Positions 28,457 to 33,215 of a DNA stretch of 64,000 nucleotides are shown here, piece by piece. The position numbers and the translations under genes are program-made. The stretch's first letter is position 1; each line of letters opens with the position of its first letter. Origin of the DNA: Escherichia phage ECO103 4-12-1; sequence record OR844650. The stretch is one strand, 5' to 3'. The notes beneath the pieces are model-generated. The model searched no databases, was not told the DNA's origin, and worked only from the letters and a program-made list of their open reading frames with translations.

Positions 28457-28485
28457 TTGACAAGTGCATCCAGTACTGGCATAAT
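28457..28485 (+). promoter_or_regulatory. plus-strand sigma70-like promoter (TTGACA-17-CATAAT) in intergenic gap
   Basis: no plus-strand ORF follows; conserved 'aacccaccgggtgc' box ~35 nt downstream. Confidence 0.4.
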
Positions 28486-28591
28486 TACTACATCAAGACG
28501 AAACAGTCACTAACCCACCGGGTGCCGAGATCCGTCTATTAAATGATTCAGTACTGAAAAAGTAACGGGGAGTTATTATCTCCCCGCGTTG

Positions 28592-28813
28592 TTATTTTGT
28601 AAGGTATAAACAGAAGTCACCTTTATTTGCTACGCCGCCAGTGTAACGCGATGAATAGTTAGAAACGTCCTGGACTTCTGCTATTACCAGGGTATCATCA
28701 TTCAATTCGTCGCAGAAGCAAACGGCTGGATCTTGTACGCCGATTTTGTCGGCATGTTCCCGCATAGATTTAACCAGTGCTTCCAGTTGGGAAAGAGTAG
28801 TGATATTAGCCAT
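28592..28813 (-). CDS. hypothetical protein
   Basis: ORF track 28592-28843; start moved to MANITTLS. Confidence 0.55.
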   Translation of the reverse strand: MANITTLSQLEALVKSMREHADKIGVQDPAVCFCDELNDDTLVIAEVQDVSNYSSRYTGGVANKGDFCLYLTK

Positions 28814-28900
28814 TTTATTTTCCTCATTACCAGGGAGAACCATTTCCCCCCTCTATGTAAACCATTATACAGTACTGAAAACTAATTGCAAGTACTTTTT

Positions 28901-29104
28901 TTAATTTAATTGCTTTAAAACATAATCAAAGACACCACGCACATCATTGATCATTGCCGTGCGGTTAGCAGGTAACGCATCAGGATCGCCACTATCCCAG
29001 GCATTGATAAAACTCCCCAAATCATGAAAGATTTTATTCTGTAAGCCGATTAACTGCAATTCTTTTTCTTCAAGCTCTTTGATACGTTCAATTAAATCAC
29101 TCAT
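28901..29104 (-). CDS. hypothetical protein
   Basis: ORF track 28901-29140; start moved to MSDLIERI. Confidence 0.5.
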   Translation of the reverse strand: MSDLIERIKELEEKELQLIGLQNKIFHDLGSFINAWDSGDPDALPANRTAMINDVRGVFDYVLKQLN

Positions 29105-29121
29105 TATATAATCCTTAGTAC

Positions 29122-29403
29122 TTAACTGTAAGATCCGCAACGGTCGCAGTAGTGCCCCTCGTCATCGTCAACGAATTGACCAACGAAATTATCTACTTTC
29201 GCTTTCAGGTTATTATAATCGTTTTCTACTTCCTTTAAACGCTTCTGGTAGTATTCCAGTGCTTTAAGATATGCCGCGTCAGCAGTTTTCTCCTGCATAG
29301 CTAAATTCATGCCACGCGTTTCATCGTACAGCCAAAAACCATCGGTGCACTGGCTAATAGATAATGACTTGCTTAGTACTGTATAGTTAATTACTTTACT
29401 CAT
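29122..29403 (-). CDS. hypothetical protein
   Basis: ORF track 29122-29484; start moved to MSKVINYT (GAGGG RBS). Confidence 0.55.
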   Translation of the reverse strand: MSKVINYTVLSKSLSISQCTDGFWLYDETRGMNLAMQEKTADAAYLKALEYYQKRLKEVENDYNNLKAKVDNFVGQFVDDDEGHYCDRCGSYS

Positions 29404-29461
29404 TAGATAAACCCTCAATAAAGGCGGGAACCATTCCCCGCCATTGTTACAGTACTGAATA

Positions 29462-29701
29462 TTACATTCCAACCATTGCAGCACGGATCGCCGTAGTGCT
29501 ATACTTGAATCCGTCCGGCGTTGTAGTAGTACCGTTGGCTTTTAATCTGCGGTACATACATTCCGCAGCAATATCTTTAGTTCTACTTTGTGCGATGCAA
29601 CTTTGAGCAAGCCGATACAATGACTCACCGTTATTAATCCATAAGGAAACATTCCAATGAGTTTTGTTTTTGTGCCCGTTGTAAGTTTTAGTACTAGCCA
29701 T
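29462..29701 (-). CDS. hypothetical protein (paralog of 31501-31740)
   Basis: ORF track; shared 'GHKNKTHWNVSLWINN.ESLYRLAQ' and 'PDGFKYSTTAIRAAMVGM'. Confidence 0.6.
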   Translation of the reverse strand: MASTKTYNGHKNKTHWNVSLWINNGESLYRLAQSCIAQSRTKDIAAECMYRRLKANGTTTTPDGFKYSTTAIRAAMVGM

Positions 29702-29793
29702 TTTTTTTAATCCTCGTTTGAGCGGGGAACCACTCCCCGCCTCGATATAAAGTATTATACGCCTTTAAACTTAGTTTGCAAGTACTTTTTAAA

Positions 29794-30405
29794 TTAATAT
29801 TCGATTGATTCTACTACACCATCAATGACATTGAATTGATATTCGTTACCCTCAATCAGTGCCGTAATGTTTTCAGTAGTGAATTGATCCTCATATGCAT
29901 TCTCTAAATCACGGTACAACTTGCGGGACAATTCACGAATAGTGTCAGTGAGTAGTTCCTCAAGCTCATTAACTAACGTTTCTTGTTTTGCGGTTAAATC
30001 AGTGTAAGCCGATTCAATGTACCCGCTTACAGTGTTCTCATGCGAGTAGTGGGAGTGAGAACGCTTTACACTCATCGCCAAATCATCTTCATTCAGCAAG
30101 TGACGGATTGAGCGATACTTAGTTAATGCTCTTACCTTGCGTAAAAACTTCACTGCGTCAACGTGGTCAGTACTGATTGATGCACCGTCACCCTGGGACC
30201 AAAAACCACTGAATTGTATTTCAGCGTCATTAATGCCATATTCCGGTAGTACTGTTTCTTTATAGTATTCAATTTCACTTTCAGAAAAATAATCATCGTT
30301 TAAGTTTTTTTCACGTTCCCGAACCAGTTCGATAGCTGACGTTTTTTGTTCTGCGTTCAATTCAGAAAAATCCATAACGAAAGTAGTAGTAGTGATAGTT
30401 TTCAT
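29794..30405 (-). CDS. hypothetical acidic protein
   Basis: ORF track; long tandem-promoter leader upstream. Confidence 0.6.
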   Translation of the reverse strand: MKTITTTTFVMDFSELNAEQKTSAIELVREREKNLNDDYFSESEIEYYKETVLPEYGINDAEIQFSGFWSQGDGASISTDHVDAVKFLRKVRALTKYRSIRHLLNEDDLAMSVKRSHSHYSHENTVSGYIESAYTDLTAKQETLVNELEELLTDTIRELSRKLYRDLENAYEDQFTTENITALIEGNEYQFNVIDGVVESIEY

Positions 30406-30629
30406 TTTGTAACTCTCATTCAGTAGTTGATGTAAGTATTATACGCTTTTAAAAACATTTGTCAAACTATTTTATCAGGGGAGTTTTTCGTGTGCCTTAC
30501 TCCTGGGCTACTTAACGGGGAGTTACTTATTTCGTTCCCCGTCCTGATGTAAAACATTATACGCCTTTAAACATAGTTTGCAAGTACTTTTTAAAAATAG
30601 TTTTCAGTACTGAATATTAAAAAAAAGTA

Positions 30630-31063: not shown

Positions 31064-31150
31064 TTTTATTACTCCAGGTTATAGGCGGGATGTGTTCCCG
31101 CTCTAGATGTAAAACATTATACGCCATTAAACATAGTTTGCAAGTACTTT

Positions 31151-31417
31151 TTATTCAAGTACTGCAATCTTTTTAGTACGGTACACGGTCACGCGGTTGC
31201 CCTTTCGGTCGAGCTTTATTTCTACCACTCGACGCGATACACTATCGGGACTTTTTAAGGCCGCTAACCAGTACTGTAATGATCTGGCTGTACTACGCTT
31301 TACAATGGCCCAACGTTCACCACTTGCCGATCCCGCACCCATATCTTTAAACGTTGCCCCGTCCTGGCGAGCGGCGATCCGAGCTTGTTCACGCGTCGCA
31401 AAATACTTAATATTCAT
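31151..31417 (-). CDS. hypothetical protein (paralog of 18726-19121)
   Basis: ORF track 31151-31453; start moved to MNIKYFATRE. Confidence 0.55.
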   Translation of the reverse strand: MNIKYFATREQARIAARQDGATFKDMGAGSASGERWAIVKRSTARSLQYWLAALKSPDSVSRRVVEIKLDRKGNRVTVYRTKKIAVLE

Positions 31418-31500
31418 GCTGTTGCCCTTATCGTTGGTGTATGAATAAAACACTATTATAAAGTACTATCACCGTGCAATAGTACTTTAAATAAATTCTA

Positions 31501-31740
31501 TTACATTCCAACCATCGCCGCACGGATCGCAGTAGTGCTATATTTGAATCCGTCCGGTGTTTTATCTTGTCCAGTCTGTTCTAAAAATAGCATCATATGA
31601 CGGGCCGCATCATTGCGATTAGTGCTATCGTTAATAAAGTCCTGGGCCAACCGGTACAATGATTCATCGTTATTAATCCAAAGGCTTACATTCCAATGAG
31701 TTTTGTTTTTGTGACCTAAGAACATTTTTGATTTTGCCAT
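31501..31740 (-). CDS. hypothetical protein (paralog of 29462-29701)
   Basis: ORF track 31501-31794; start moved to MAKSKMF. Confidence 0.55.
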   Translation of the reverse strand: MAKSKMFLGHKNKTHWNVSLWINNDESLYRLAQDFINDSTNRNDAARHMMLFLEQTGQDKTPDGFKYSTTAIRAAMVGM

Positions 31741-31823
31741 TTTTTTTAATCCTCTTATATAGTGGGGAACTATTCCCCACCTGATGTAAAACATTATACG
31801 CTTTTAAACTTAGTTTGCAAGTA

Positions 31824-32057
31824 CTATTTTTTCAGTACTGGTAAACCTTTGATCTCACCTGGCTGTACTTCCTCAAAGGCGACCGCCATCATACGGCTAT
31901 CATCTTCCTTACATTCTTCCATCGCATCACAAAAATGATTAATAACGTCCGGTGCAACGTCAACCACATCAAACAAGCCAACCTCAGTGCAACGGCTTAA
32001 AGCGTTTAATAGGTCAGTCAGTGCAACGGATTGAGAAACAGTTAAAATAGTACTCAT
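31824..32057 (-). CDS. hypothetical acidic protein
   Basis: ORF track. Confidence 0.55.
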   Translation of the reverse strand: MSTILTVSQSVALTDLLNALSRCTEVGLFDVVDVAPDVINHFCDAMEECKEDDSRMMAVAFEEVQPGEIKGLPVLKK

Positions 32058-32151
32058 AAAATTAATCTCTTAATTTTAGTGGGGAACTATTCCCCACCTG
32101 ATGTAAAACATTATACGCCATTAAACATAGTTTGCAAGTACTTTATTAAAC

Positions 32152-32514
32152 TTATTTGTAAATTTTGCCACTGTCAGCCCATACCAGGAAACGAGGCATA
32201 TTATCCCATGCATCTTGTTTTAAGTTTAAGCCGTGCAATTCCTCAGTTGTTGCCATCCCTGGTACTGGCTTACTACACACCGCGAAATTTTCGCCCATGT
32301 ACTGATAAACCATCGTCAAATCATTTGAGATCATTACATGGATCATTGAATCAAGCATCAAAGTAGCGGCGTATTGTTCACGCTTAAGCGGCAACATTGC
32401 AATAAGTTCCCGATAAGCTGCAATGTGAATTTTTACAGTTTCAGCCGGAAGACCTTTCATCTCTTCGCGGAAGTTTACCAGGTTAAGCATGATTTTAGTG
32501 ATTTGAGTCGCCAT
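32152..32514 (-). CDS. hypothetical protein
   Basis: ORF track 32152-32571; start moved to MATQITKI. Confidence 0.55.
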   Translation of the reverse strand: MATQITKIMLNLVNFREEMKGLPAETVKIHIAAYRELIAMLPLKREQYAATLMLDSMIHVMISNDLTMVYQYMGENFAVCSKPVPGMATTEELHGLNLKQDAWDNMPRFLVWADSGKIYK

Positions 32515-32873
32515 CGTTTTAATCTCTCTTAATGTGTAGCGGGAAGTGTTCCCGCTCTCGATGTAAAACATTATACGCCTTTAAACATAGTTTGCAAGTA
32601 CTTTCTACATGTACTTTTAAAATAGTTTTCTTTCTATATAGGGGAACTATCATTCAGTACTGCAACCATCCAGGGGAACTATCTTTCTATATAGGAGTAC
32701 TATTATTCAGTACTGAATCAACCAAATCACTACTACACCCCGTAAAACGGCCTCAGACGCATTCTAACGCATTAATACACCTAAGCTATACATTTGCACC
32801 ATTCCAATCATTCCAGGGCTTTACGGGCCGTTTAAACGCGTTAAATTATTTTCAATTATTTTGTTTTTAGGTA

Positions 32874-32901
32874 TTGACTTGATCCTGAAAAAGCGTATAA
32901 T
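32874..32901 (+). promoter_or_regulatory. plus-strand sigma70-like promoter (TTGACT-16-TATAAT)
   Basis: in ORF-free region; followed by 'ccccagagggtgcgg' box. Confidence 0.4.
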
Positions 32902-33215
32902 TACTACATAGACGCGAGAAAGCGGAAACCCCAGAGGGTGCGGAATTACGCCCAAAATTCAAGATATAAAAAAAGGATACACTCCCGCACCCTAGCAGGT
33001 AAACGCACTTTCTCAGTACTGAAATATAGTACCATAGTACGGCCCAGGATAGCAAGCAAATTAATTAAAACTTTTTTGCTTCCAGGGTATTGCTTTATTT
33101 TTTCAGTACTGTATAATAGTTCCATCAAGTCGAGAAAGACTCAAGCCCACCGGGTGCATAGTTACGCCCAAAATTCAGTACTGAAAAAATTTTTAAAAAA
33201 TATCCGTCCAGGCCG

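Follow-up and report, generated by a model that had tools for sequence, protein, structure and literature searches.

Several known systems resemble the repeated unit described here, which we call the P1 cassette. T4-like phages carry promoter-early stem-loop cassettes, or PeSLs (Arbiol et al. 2010, PMC2839356; Comeau et al. 2014, PMC4122927), which join a sigma70-like early promoter to a terminator-like stem-loop (A-run, G-run, loop, C-run, T-run). Like PeSLs, P1 cassettes recur many times among early genes that are small and evolve fast, in a myovirus related to T4. However, a PeSL leads straight to a Shine-Dalgarno sequence and start codon, whereas P1 is predicted to drive a structured non-coding RNA of ~55 nt, and the gene behind it is served by a second, ordinary promoter. 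In addition, one third of P1 copies are antisense, and the four copies flagged in an initial annotation have no stem-loop. The nut sites of lambda (boxA/boxB) and put of HK022 are also short RNA hairpins just past host-polymerase early promoters. The setting is similarly rich in terminators, and the loop of the first P1 hairpin (H1) is purine-rich like that of boxB. The likeness noted here is one of layout, and no Rfam family matches the module. P1 lacks a boxA, its H1 loop is 6-7 nt rather than a GNRA-like pentaloop, there are 10-13 copies per genome end rather than two, both orientations occur, and no N-like protein is known.

The Pseudomonas jumbo phage PA5oct, a distant relative, has highly transcribed non-coding RNAs, such as ncRNA001 and ncRNA002, in its terminal repeat (PMC7318152). 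These too are non-coding units from a long terminal repeat, in a jumbo phage reliant on host polymerase, but they are 236-451 nt long and single-copy, and they are not homologous to P1 by our covariance model (best 9.4 bits, E 0.45). Lastly, attenuators and riboswitch expression platforms share with P1 a segment (GGGU) with two exclusive partners and, in some copies, a hairpin followed by a U-run. In contrast to these regulators, most P1 copies lack a U-run after the downstream hairpin (T), no aptamer can be recognised, and no gene downstream depends on the unit alone.

The DNA analysed here, 64 kb in length (the window), belongs to a jumbo phage of the genus Asteriusvirus (PBECO4/121Q-like). 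A direct terminal repeat of ~21 kb contains the flagged region, at a distance of 1-6 kb from the genome's physical left end (at about 34247 in the window); repeat and end were placed by our own analysis together with PMC13070987. Four plus-strand promoters had been reported there, opposing all neighbouring genes, with no reading frame behind them and a shared box after each, and all of this was confirmed. Three of the promoters were found by a consensus scan, and the fourth, with a perfect -10, fell under its -35 cut-off. Nine of the ten neighbouring minus-strand genes match PHROG families (E 6e-24 to 5e-80); the ORFs overlying the units match nothing. The box starts 21-28 nt past the -10 hexamer, or 50-57 nt when counted from where the -35 begins, roughly as first described (30-40 nt downstream).

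The box, CCCAYNGGGTGC, is present in ten copies in the window: four on the plus strand (CCCACCGGGTGC in three, the variant CCCAGAGGGTGC in unit 3) and six on the minus strand, in the sense of the genes, all with promoters of their own (Table 1). Its recurrence is not random. With up to two mismatches there are 11 matches, against 0.66 expected, and none of 100 shuffles reached 11. Two of the 11 belong to one palindromic terminator at 27455 and hence represent no unit. A covariance model finds exactly ten copies, all between 14.3 and 33.2 kb and roughly 3 kb apart, and CCCA..GGG does not occur elsewhere in the window. The segment atacactcccgcaccct, thought to pair with the box, is indeed present at 30727 and 32977 (with a variant form at 14379 and 17126), but rather than a dedicated 3' partner it is a convergent minus-strand copy, equipped with its own promoter and seen here as the reverse complement. 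The initial annotation mentioned neither the six minus-strand copies nor the setting, a Rak2-like jumbo phage's direct terminal repeat close to the genome end.

Table 1. P1 units and the associated terminator-like hairpin (window coordinates; box starts of minus-strand units in minus-strand coordinates; scores from the covariance model)
Feature	Coordinates	Strand	Promoter	RNA module	Box	Score	Remarks
Unit 1, antisense	28457..28547	+	28457-28485, TTGACA-17-CATAAT, 11/12, TG-extended	28492-28547	28514-28525	48.9 bits, E 3.8e-10	H1 GAC/GUC; GAUCCGUCU tail
Terminator-like hairpin	28566..28595	bidirectional					CGGGGAG..CUCCCCG, T-rich tails; terminator scan, both strands; would stop unit-1 RNA (~100 nt) and minus-strand gene 28592-28843
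Unit 2, antisense	30630..30713	+	30630-30658, TTGACA-17-CATAAT, 11/12	30658-30713	30680	35.7 bits	short leader, no clear H1; convergent with unit 5
Unit 5, gene-sense	30715..30802	-	30802-30774, TTGACT-17-CATAAT	30769-30715	30748	46.9 bits	reverse complement gives atacactcccgcaccct at 30727
Unit 3, antisense	32874..32963	+	32874-32901, TTGACT-16-TATAAT, 11/12	32908-32963	32930, CCCCAGAGGGUGC	46.3 bits	H1 CGC/GCG, loop GAGAAA; T arm CGCCC; convergent with unit 6
Unit 6, gene-sense	32960..33055	-	33055-33026, TTGCTA-18-TACTAT	33020-32965	32999, degenerate, CCUGCUAGGGUGC	34.1 bits	T hairpin AGGGUGC..GUAUCCU then U7, predicted ~60-nt RNA; scan terminator 32993..32974; reverse complement gives second atacactcccgcaccct
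Unit 4, antisense	33090..33179	+	33090-33117, TTGCTT-16-TATAAT, 9/12	33124-33179	33146	42.6 bits	H1 AGUC/GACU, loop GAGAAA; directed to genome end ~1.1 kb away
Unit 7, gene-sense	23855..23943	-	-35 TTGACT within terminator-like hairpin; -10 TATTAT	23910-23855	23888	54.9 bits	
Unit 8, gene-sense	20386..20469	-			20419	46.5 bits	short leader, no clear H1
Unit 9, gene-sense	17114..17202	-			17147	61 bits, E 1.4e-13	highest score in window; H1 UGAG/CUCA, loop AGAUAA
Unit 10, gene-sense	14367..14450	-			14400	48.3 bits	short leader

The conserved unit, judged by comparing its copies, is larger than the box and comprises a promoter, H1, the box and a downstream GUAUCY. A sigma70-like promoter precedes all 61 copies collected by pattern (8-12 of 12 consensus matches, at least 10 in 45 copies), and the distance from -10 to box is 25-29 nt in 54 of them. 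The module of ~55 nt consists of H1, a linker of 4-5 nt, a near-invariant RCCC-N3-4-GGGUGC, 6 nt, and GUAUCY. H1 has a stem of 3-5 bp, free in sequence, and a purine-rich loop (GCGAAA, GAGAAA, AGAUAA or AGAACAA). It is found at the expected place in 56 of the 61 copies, with 30 distinct stem sequences, and is not recognisable in the other five. Stems of at least 4 bp occur in 74% of copies, against 30% (maximum 41%) after shuffling. Each of the four H1 pairs has compensatory changes on both sides (12-34 sequences each). They score 0.38-0.42 for covariation, compared to 0.23 when shuffled (0/500) and 0.06-0.14 with slid partners, and the result holds in both an unfitted MAFFT alignment and the covariance-model alignment. 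Single units, however, fold no better than their shuffled versions (z about -1).

Downstream of H1, the GGGU of the box can pair with RCCC upstream (helix H2) or with AUCY downstream, within GGGUGC/GUAUCY (helix T), so that two mutually exclusive states are predicted with similar stability (H2, -3.7 to -4.1 kcal/mol; T, about -5 kcal/mol). H2 is paired in 96.5% of cases, with A or G at R29 opposite U, and its innermost pair has changed from C-G to U-A in two independent cases. T is paired in 90%, through U/C and A/G changes only, with a loop fixed at 6 nt. Because GGGUGC is invariant, the support for H2 and T comes chiefly from one-sided changes. Comparative analysis shows RNA-level constraint, with the compensatory changes in the 5' hairpin.

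Lone antisense copies are followed, 45-77 nt past the box, by a terminator-like hairpin and are thus predicted to yield discrete non-coding RNAs of ~100 nt. Such terminators occur in Asteriusvirus, CBB, RaK2, BF and Yen9-03. The one proposed at 28566-28595 was recovered by the terminator scan and bounds the first unit. In three of the convergent pairs of relatives (GAP32, BF and Yen9-03), the antisense copy would stop at its partner's upstream bidirectional terminator, at ~150 nt; no terminator was found for the two pairs in the window. The two predicted RNAs of such a pair are mutually complementary, which would be odd for a simple decoy. In some copies a U-run comes right after T, which would stop the RNA just past the module (window 32993-32960, where the U-run is kept in five Asteriusvirus relatives; GAP32 17348). 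Most sense copies lack a terminator and run on into ordinary gene promoters; a discrete small RNA from these would need processing, and otherwise the module would simply be a leader. Given real promoters and box, no coding, constraint on H1 and the terminator after the first unit, the proposal of candidate small RNAs is reasonable for the four plus-strand units, but it is too narrow. The family is no peculiarity of the plus strand or of antisense copies, since six of the ten are gene-sense.

We think that the four promoters are probably the antisense members of this ten-copy P1 family, and that the product would be the RNA itself. The cassettes do not appear to serve as gene promoters: gene-sense is the sole orientation of the 22 ordinary gene promoters (TTGCAA-16-TATAAT-GTTTTACAT), whereas P1 cassettes point both ways. 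An unlikely alternative is that the module is a cis-acting leader like lambda nut or HK022 put, in which nascent H1/H2 RNA, close behind a polymerase that set out from P1, binds a factor or that polymerase to allow read-through of the many terminators between small early genes, with the choice of H2 or T setting the state. The module is always promoter-proximal at fixed spacing, and sense copies lie directly 3' of a terminator, without one of their own, ahead of a gene/terminator series. A -35 placed within the upstream terminator would cut read-through and so keep the module at a 5' end. Loops of boxB are purine-rich, as is that of H1, and about ten copies per genome examined, ~3 kb apart in the window, would fit a local role. 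However, terminator-resistant transcription from the antisense third of copies would be harmful, lone antisense copies are followed by terminators as if meant to stop them, and some copies form a terminator out of the module itself. The genes already have promoters, a search for boxA found none, and no candidate antiterminator protein was identified. It is very unlikely that the cassette is instead a PeSL-like mobile element, with terminator and early promoter as a substrate for recombination, as modelled on the shuffling of T4-like hyperplastic regions, and with the downstream sequence hitch-hiking without RNA function. The stem-loop (A-run, G3-4, loop, C3-4, T-run) and sigma70-like promoter of sense copies do match PeSL descriptions (PMC4122927, PMC2839356), both orientations are found, and relatives cover the region only in patches, as a mosaic. 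But the units have neither Shine-Dalgarno nor start codon, H1 pairing is kept through 30 stems, which would not be expected of hitch-hiking DNA, the core stays invariant across four genera whereas flanks and promoter spacers diverge, and the plus-strand copies are missing the upstream stem-loop.

We give still less credence to a site acting as DNA, either a palindromic operator (ACCC-N3-4-GGGT) at about +20, whose binding by a phage or host protein would block the strongest early promoters or set their timing, or a hairpin in the non-template strand that an RfaH/ops-like factor reads. The location just past the start site suits a roadblock, the Eneladusvirus site is a perfect 12-bp palindrome (ACCCTATAGGGT), and an invariant CCC/GGGTGC stem with a variable centre is the reverse of the usual RNA pattern, although two alternative helices sharing GGG would also give GGG/CCC invariance. 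A spacer of 3 or 4 bp would be poorly tolerated by dimeric DNA binders, GUAUCY varies only where pairing with GGGUGC survives, and H1 covariation requires a single-stranded fold. Transcription-primed replication origins, in which a G-rich transcript (GGGUGCGGAG) forms a persistent R-loop past a strong promoter and convergent pairs give bidirectional starts, seem most improbable. T4 oriF/oriG and the T7 primary origin do combine a promoter with a conserved downstream element, and there are convergent pairs near the genome end. The GC skew changes sign at ~34 kb, but this matches the point at which the two genome ends join, which is the physical terminus, and not the units. In addition, 10-13 origins within the terminal repeat alone are implausible, an AT-rich unwinding element is not consistently present, and H1 would have no role.

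The P1 family appears to be a previously undescribed family of putative promoter-coupled structured RNAs. No host homolog of the unit was found, and our literature search turned up neither a description of this RNA family nor RNA-seq for the clade. The covariance model, applied to five relatives from three other genera (CBB, GAP32, RaK2, Serratia BF and Yersinia fHe-Yen9-03), finds the promoter-H1-box unit 10-13 times per terminal region, about two thirds gene-sense and one third antisense. The family is thus in the terminal repeat of every Rak2-like jumbo phage examined, and among Asteriusvirus genomes the module is better conserved than its flanks. That every genome examined keeps about ten copies would suit a local (cis) role better than dosage alone.

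We read the cassettes as putative genes or modules for an immediate-early structured RNA. The promoter is near-consensus sigma70, often with a TG-extended -10, and if transcription starts ~7 nt past the -10, the module would begin 2-8 nt from the 5' end. Host RNA polymerase would make the RNAs in the first minutes of infection, from what is probably the first DNA to enter the cell. The product may act as an abundant structured RNA in which the invariant core, beside a 5' clamp hairpin, would be what a conserved protein, or perhaps the transcription complex, recognises. Our best guess is that the RNA binds a protein or RNA polymerase.

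The four plus-strand promoters flagged in the initial annotation, which lie antisense within minus-strand gene territory, belong to a promoter-coupled, multi-copy, clade-wide element. Each copy, or unit, consists of a sigma70-like promoter and an RNA module of about 55 nt, in which a 5' hairpin (H1) held by compensatory change precedes a near-invariant core, the box (RCCC-N3-4-GGGUGC). The consensus scan recovers three of the flagged promoters where the initial annotation placed them; the fourth has fewer matches, with a perfect -10 and a weak -35 (see table). The box does follow each of them; at two mismatches or fewer it occurs 11 times in the window (0.66 expected), and an 18-mer, ATACACTCCCGCACCCTA, occurs four times (0.02 expected). 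These four copies (units 1-4) are real, but they are not the whole set: a covariance model of the family finds exactly ten copies in the 64 kb and nothing else at E <=0.01, and six of the ten (units 5-10) are on the minus strand. The pattern CCCA..GGG is found nowhere else in the window. The segment atacactcccgcaccct, described as able to pair with the box, is present at 30727 and 32977, but it is the reverse complement of convergent minus-strand copies that have their own promoters, and we rejected it as a dedicated pairing partner.

Coordinates of units and neighbouring features in the window
Feature	Position	Strand	Remarks
Flagged promoter	28457-28485	+	11/12 consensus matches
Flagged promoter	30630-30658	+	11/12 consensus matches
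Flagged promoter	32874-32901	+	11/12 consensus matches
Flagged promoter	33090-33117	+	9/12; perfect -10, weak -35
Minus-strand box starts	14400, 17147, 20419, 23888, 30748, 32999	-	own sigma70-like promoter each, at the same distance
Convergent pair	30680 (+) facing 30748 (-)	+/-	atacactcccgcaccct at 30727
Convergent pair	32929 (+) facing 32999 (-)	+/-	atacactcccgcaccct at 32977
Bidirectional terminator-like hairpins	14440-14462, 17185-17210, 20455-20478, 23925-23950		AAAGGGACUGACCGGAGUCAAUCCCUUUUUU on plus strand
Small DUF7249 / phrog_871 genes	29462-29701, 31501-31794	-	paralogs, 2 kb apart
Near-duplicate intergenic blocks	20180-20360, 30400-30590		perfect promoter at 30465-30438
Array of 8-nt TAGCCGTC	33341-33439		~12 copies; variants TAGCCATC, CAGACGTC
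Fifth plus-strand promoter and following hairpins	33216-33300	+	TTGACA-17-GATAAT, 11/12

The element is found throughout the Rak2-like jumbo phages. With a 121-nt minus-strand unit as query, multi-copy matches at 73-76% identity, often within annotated terminal repeats, were obtained in every group, among them CBB and GAP32 (Mimasvirus), RaK2, K64-1 and other Klebsiella phages, Serratia BF, Erwinia phages and Yersinia fHe-Yen9. The covariance model finds 10-13 copies per terminal region in five relatives, and 92 in all with metagenome contigs. When IMG/VR was scanned with the exact pattern, matches fell on Rak2-like isolates already sequenced, on a pair of metagenome contigs of comparable size (~360 kb) and on five unplaced contigs that are shorter. 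A scan of 185,579 species genomes (one per bacterial species) gave 71 scattered single matches, with none from Enterobacterales among those listed. Since this does not exceed the ~140 expected by chance (a rough, uniform-composition estimate), we rejected a host origin or host mimicry.

The units do not appear to be genes for proteins or known RNAs. The flagged promoters had been described as having no ORF behind them; such ORFs as cross the units match no PHROG family, which led us to reject a protein-coding explanation; units also differ by 1-nt indels among relatives. The neighbouring minus-strand ORFs are real genes, nine of ten matching PHROG families (E 6e-24 to 5e-80). Rfam 15 gave no gathering-threshold match in the window, and a permissive search to E=5 gave nothing relevant: the one match to overlap a unit is to IS102 RNA (30765-31015, minus strand; 20.8 bits, E 2.7, far under the gathering threshold of 46 bits), and its 3' end touches the promoter of unit 5. 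ARAGORN found no tRNA or tmRNA genes in the window. In the records inspected, units bear no feature or a spurious 'hypothetical protein'. The literature searched describes sigma70-like promoters and terminal repeats of Rak2-like phages, and in it we found neither this element nor a transcriptome of an Asteriusvirus or other Rak2-like phage.

H1 begins 2-8 nt past the presumed start site and has a stem of 3-5 bp and a purine-rich loop of 6-7 nt (GCGAAA, GAGAAA, AGAUAA or AGAACAA). It is present in 56 of 61 copies collected by pattern from the family, with 30 stem sequences, and reaches at least 4 bp in 74% of copies, compared with 30% after shuffling. Changes on both sides of the stem occur at all four pairs, in 12-34 sequences (counted per sequence, not per evolutionary event). 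Covariation, measured on an unfitted MAFFT alignment and on a model-fitted alignment, is 0.38-0.42, which none of 500 shuffles reached; with the partners slid by 1-3 columns it is 0.06-0.14. Because the register of H1 varies among copies, the tool counts understate the pairing. Covariance across homologs thus shows H1 pairs kept by compensatory changes. In RNA folding, the convergent pairs form long, imperfect hairpins (z -2.9 to -3.9); single units, with z about -1, folded no better than shuffled sequence.

After H1 come a linker of 4-5 nt and the nearly invariant core, which has two alternative pairings. In the first (H2), RCCC pairs with GGGU: 96.5% of cells are paired, the outer purine (A or G) stands opposite U, and the innermost pair has undergone two independent C-G to U-A double changes. 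In the second (T), GGGUGC pairs with GUAUCY, which lies exactly six nucleotides after it; 90% is paired, and nearly all variation in GUAUCY consists of U/C and A/G changes compatible with this pairing. Support for H2 and T comes mostly from one-sided changes. The two helices share GGG, so they are mutually exclusive, and their predicted energies are similar (about -4 kcal/mol for H2 and -5 for T). A segment obliged to pair with two partners would be frozen, and this constraint would account for the lack of any variation in CCC and GGG.

Several other structures and targets were rejected. A long-range helix of 5' AGAUA/AGACG with 3' UAUCU/CGUCU, which units 1 and 9 form when folded as single sequences, was discarded because the genera with a GCGAAA loop have no complementary tail, and a pseudoknot between the H1 loop and the tail because loop class and tail sequence are uncorrelated. 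A CsrA sponge was dismissed because GGA occurs in the T loop of only about half of the copies. As for a trans target within the window, every occurrence of the anti-box there is simply the complementary strand of a unit. An apparent likeness of GGGUGC..GGAAUUAC to a stretch of 16S rRNA holds for two copies only and was dropped. An RNA anti-CRISPR that mimics a solitary repeat would be expected to match a host CRISPR repeat over nearly its full length; the box is not known to resemble the I-E and I-F repeats.

All 61 family copies have a sigma70-like promoter, with 8-12 of 12 consensus matches. Of these, 44 have TTGACA or TTGACT as the -35, 43 a 17-bp spacer and 37 a TG-extended -10, and in 54 the box lies 25-29 nt from the -10. 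In units 7-10 and most gene-sense copies of the relatives, the -35 forms part of the stem of an element with the layout A-run/hairpin/T-run, which resembles a bidirectional terminator. This gene-sense stem-loop, AAAGGGAUUGAC-UCCG-GUCAGUCCCUUU, carries the -35 in its stem and is absent from units 1-4. The AAAGGGACUGACCGGAGUCAAUCCCUUUUUU hairpins of the window hold the TTGACT of the minus-strand cassette in the stem and have a UCCG or UUCG loop, and the same design occurs in CBB, GAP32, RaK2 and BF.

A second promoter class, TTGCAA-16-TATAAT-GTTTTACAT, occurs 22 times in the window, always on the minus strand (13850-32597). Wherever the whole sequence was read, a 5'-UTR hairpin of variable stem, GGGGAA(C)..(G)UUCCCC, comes next, and then a ribosome-binding site and a gene. 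This layout resembles that of PeSL cassettes, with a class-specific leader. All but one of the window's six sense copies have such a promoter 40-190 nt downstream, as do about half of those in relatives. Because the second class is strictly gene-sense and leads to genes, it is this class that serves gene expression. The ten box-bearing promoters, six sense and four antisense, have no gene directly after them. Their mixed orientation, the lack of a gene directly after them and the service of genes by the second class are our main reason for viewing box cassettes as transcription units with RNA as the product.

A fifth plus-strand promoter faces the end of the genome. Behind it come a hairpin like H1 (AGAUU CAGAAA AAUCU) and a GGGGAAACUAUCCCC hairpin; the box is absent and the covariance model is silent. 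This promoter is kept in four of five relatives aligned (121Q, UE-S1, EJP2 and UB); in the unverified CMSTMSU record, its -10 alone survives.

Behind lone antisense copies, a hairpin resembling a terminator lies 45-77 nt past the box (unit 1, and copies in CBB, RaK2, BF and Yen9-03, that is, Yersinia fHe-Yen9-03). For unit 1 this is the hairpin with a T-rich tail at 28566-28595 that the initial annotation had described, and we detect it on both strands. In the convergent pairs of GAP32, BF and Yen9-03, the antisense copy leads to its partner's upstream bidirectional terminator, about 110-130 nt past the box. A promoter, a lack of coding potential and a terminator at ~50-300 nt, as expected of a stand-alone small RNA gene, are combined in unit 1, unit 6 and the lone antisense copies of CBB, RaK2, BF and Yen9-03, and not in units 2-4 or most sense copies. 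For the majority of sense copies, no terminator lies in the next 220 nt. Only some copies, such as window 32993-32960 and GAP32 17348, have a U-run after T, so T is not in general a terminator helix of the kind an attenuator would have. The copy at 32993-32960, the leftmost in sense orientation, has U7 after T, kept in five Asteriusvirus relatives, and its RNA would be about 60 nt, the module alone.

The flagged units lie near the end of a genome. By megablast, 28300-33300 matches Asteriusvirus jumbo phages (PBECO4 at 94.7% over full length; also 121Q, G17, Sharanji and others), and in several records the region lies at the very start of the sequence. In vB_Ec-M-J it is within the annotated direct terminal repeat of 21,525 bp; base 1 of that record aligns to window 34247, and the last 700 nt are 97% identical. 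G+C is 0.38-0.40 at 12-34 kb and lower outside, and the GC skew switches sign at ~34 kb (~34247), from about -0.12 to about +0.18, with the gene strand unchanged. In the relative fEgEco12, PhageTerm and restriction mapping confirmed a repeat of 20,993 bp (PMC13070987). Together, these observations put the flagged units inside the terminal repeat, at a distance of 1-6 kb from the genome's physical left end. Window ~34247 is the equivalent of the physical left terminus of vB_Ec-M-J. Given this and the skew switch there, the assembly must be collapsed or circularised, and the two genome ends meet inside the window. RaK2 has a similar CTTAGTGGCATATC string (L005, about 2800).

The repeat has other features. 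Two small genes of this early region are DUF7249 / phrog_871 paralogs. An intergenic block that occurs as a near-duplicate, with a perfect TTGACA-16-TATAAT promoter, a long GGGGAGU..hairpin and a second-class promoter, is evidence of segmental duplication inside the terminal repeat. The TAGCCGTC array sits in a gene-free stretch of ~1.7 kb from the first gene to the genome end. A palindrome, CAGTACTG (often TTCAGTACTGAA), occurs 64 times in the window (about 1 expected) and is densest at 12701-34250. Its density per kb is 1.8 across the terminal repeat, compared with 0.8 at 34-64 kb and 0.08 at 1-12.7 kb. It often falls between cassettes or within the spacer of a promoter, immediately before the -10, and may be a regulator-binding site.

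We think it probable, though well short of certain, that the units are a family of structured non-coding RNA modules or genes, the four flagged copies being stand-alone RNAs of ~100-150 nt. The main rival is a cis-acting, nut/put-like leader that controls elongation, which we consider unlikely. In favour of such a leader, the module's position next to the promoter is fixed, its surroundings are rich in terminators, and each genome examined has kept about ten copies; the hairpins resemble those of nut and put sites in being promoter-proximal; however, parts, copy number and orientation differ. HK022 put RNA has two stem-loops shortly after early promoters, is co-oriented with its operon and acts in cis on polymerase; the units have two small helices directly after the promoter, and about one third of their copies are antisense to genes. 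Evidence against the leader comes from the antisense copies, from the terminators that the module itself would form in a few copies and from the absence of boxA: CGCTCTTTAACA-like sequences number nine in the window at <=2 mismatches (11.7 expected), none near the units. The boxB of lambda has a GNRA-like pentaloop bound by an arginine-rich N protein, and the 6-7 nt purine-rich loop of H1 is a resemblance only.

A PeSL-type recombination cassette, which has a terminator/promoter architecture (PMC4122927, PMC2839356), would account for the fusion of terminator and promoter, and gene-sense units do have a stem-loop overlapping a sigma70-like early promoter. Plus-strand units 1-4 lack it, however, and PeSLs run up to the next gene's Shine-Dalgarno sequence and start codon, leaving a non-coding, covarying leader unexplained. 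If the box were instead a double-stranded DNA operator, its invariant half-sites would be expected, but the variation between 3- and 4-nt spacers and the presence of H1 would not. Replication-origin R-loops are unlikely. The non-coding RNAs in the terminal repeats of PA5oct share that setting (PMC7318152); we found no homology to the units and rejected them as homologues. The promoter part is ordinary, and the attached RNA family appears undescribed in the literature searched.

Under the RNA reading, host polymerase would transcribe the cassettes right after DNA entry, and the ~55-nt module would be the functional part, probably acting by being bound by a conserved protein or the transcription complex. 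The product may be an abundant trans-acting RNA (a sponge or cofactor) or have other RNA-level roles. A bolder and doubtful possibility is a novel regulatory class: a nascent, promoter-coupled RNA that switches between H2 and T and reprograms or captures a conserved host component of Enterobacterales. It would be made from the first DNA entering, and the cassettes, about ten to thirteen in each terminal repeat and facing either way, would determine when host takeover occurs in every Rak2-like jumbo phage. Candidates would be RNA polymerase or elongation factors, in a put-like manner without a phage protein, or a sponged RNA-binding or defence protein.

Many Rak2-like jumbo phages (Asteriusvirus, Mimasvirus, Alcyoneusvirus and Eneladusvirus) have been isolated for therapy, and the annotation of their terminal repeats (~21 kb) consists solely of successive hypothetical proteins. 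The element is the most conserved non-coding feature of the repeat. It is attached to some of the repeat's strongest host-type promoters and therefore would be one of the earliest products of the phage. Should it prove a functional RNA, databases would gain a new RNA family, spurious 'hypothetical protein' annotations would be corrected, and a 55-nt RNA with an invariant 12-nt core and clear mutational predictions would give immediate-early control in these phages a tangible point of entry. An action on host polymerase or on a defence protein would make it a new mechanism of host takeover.
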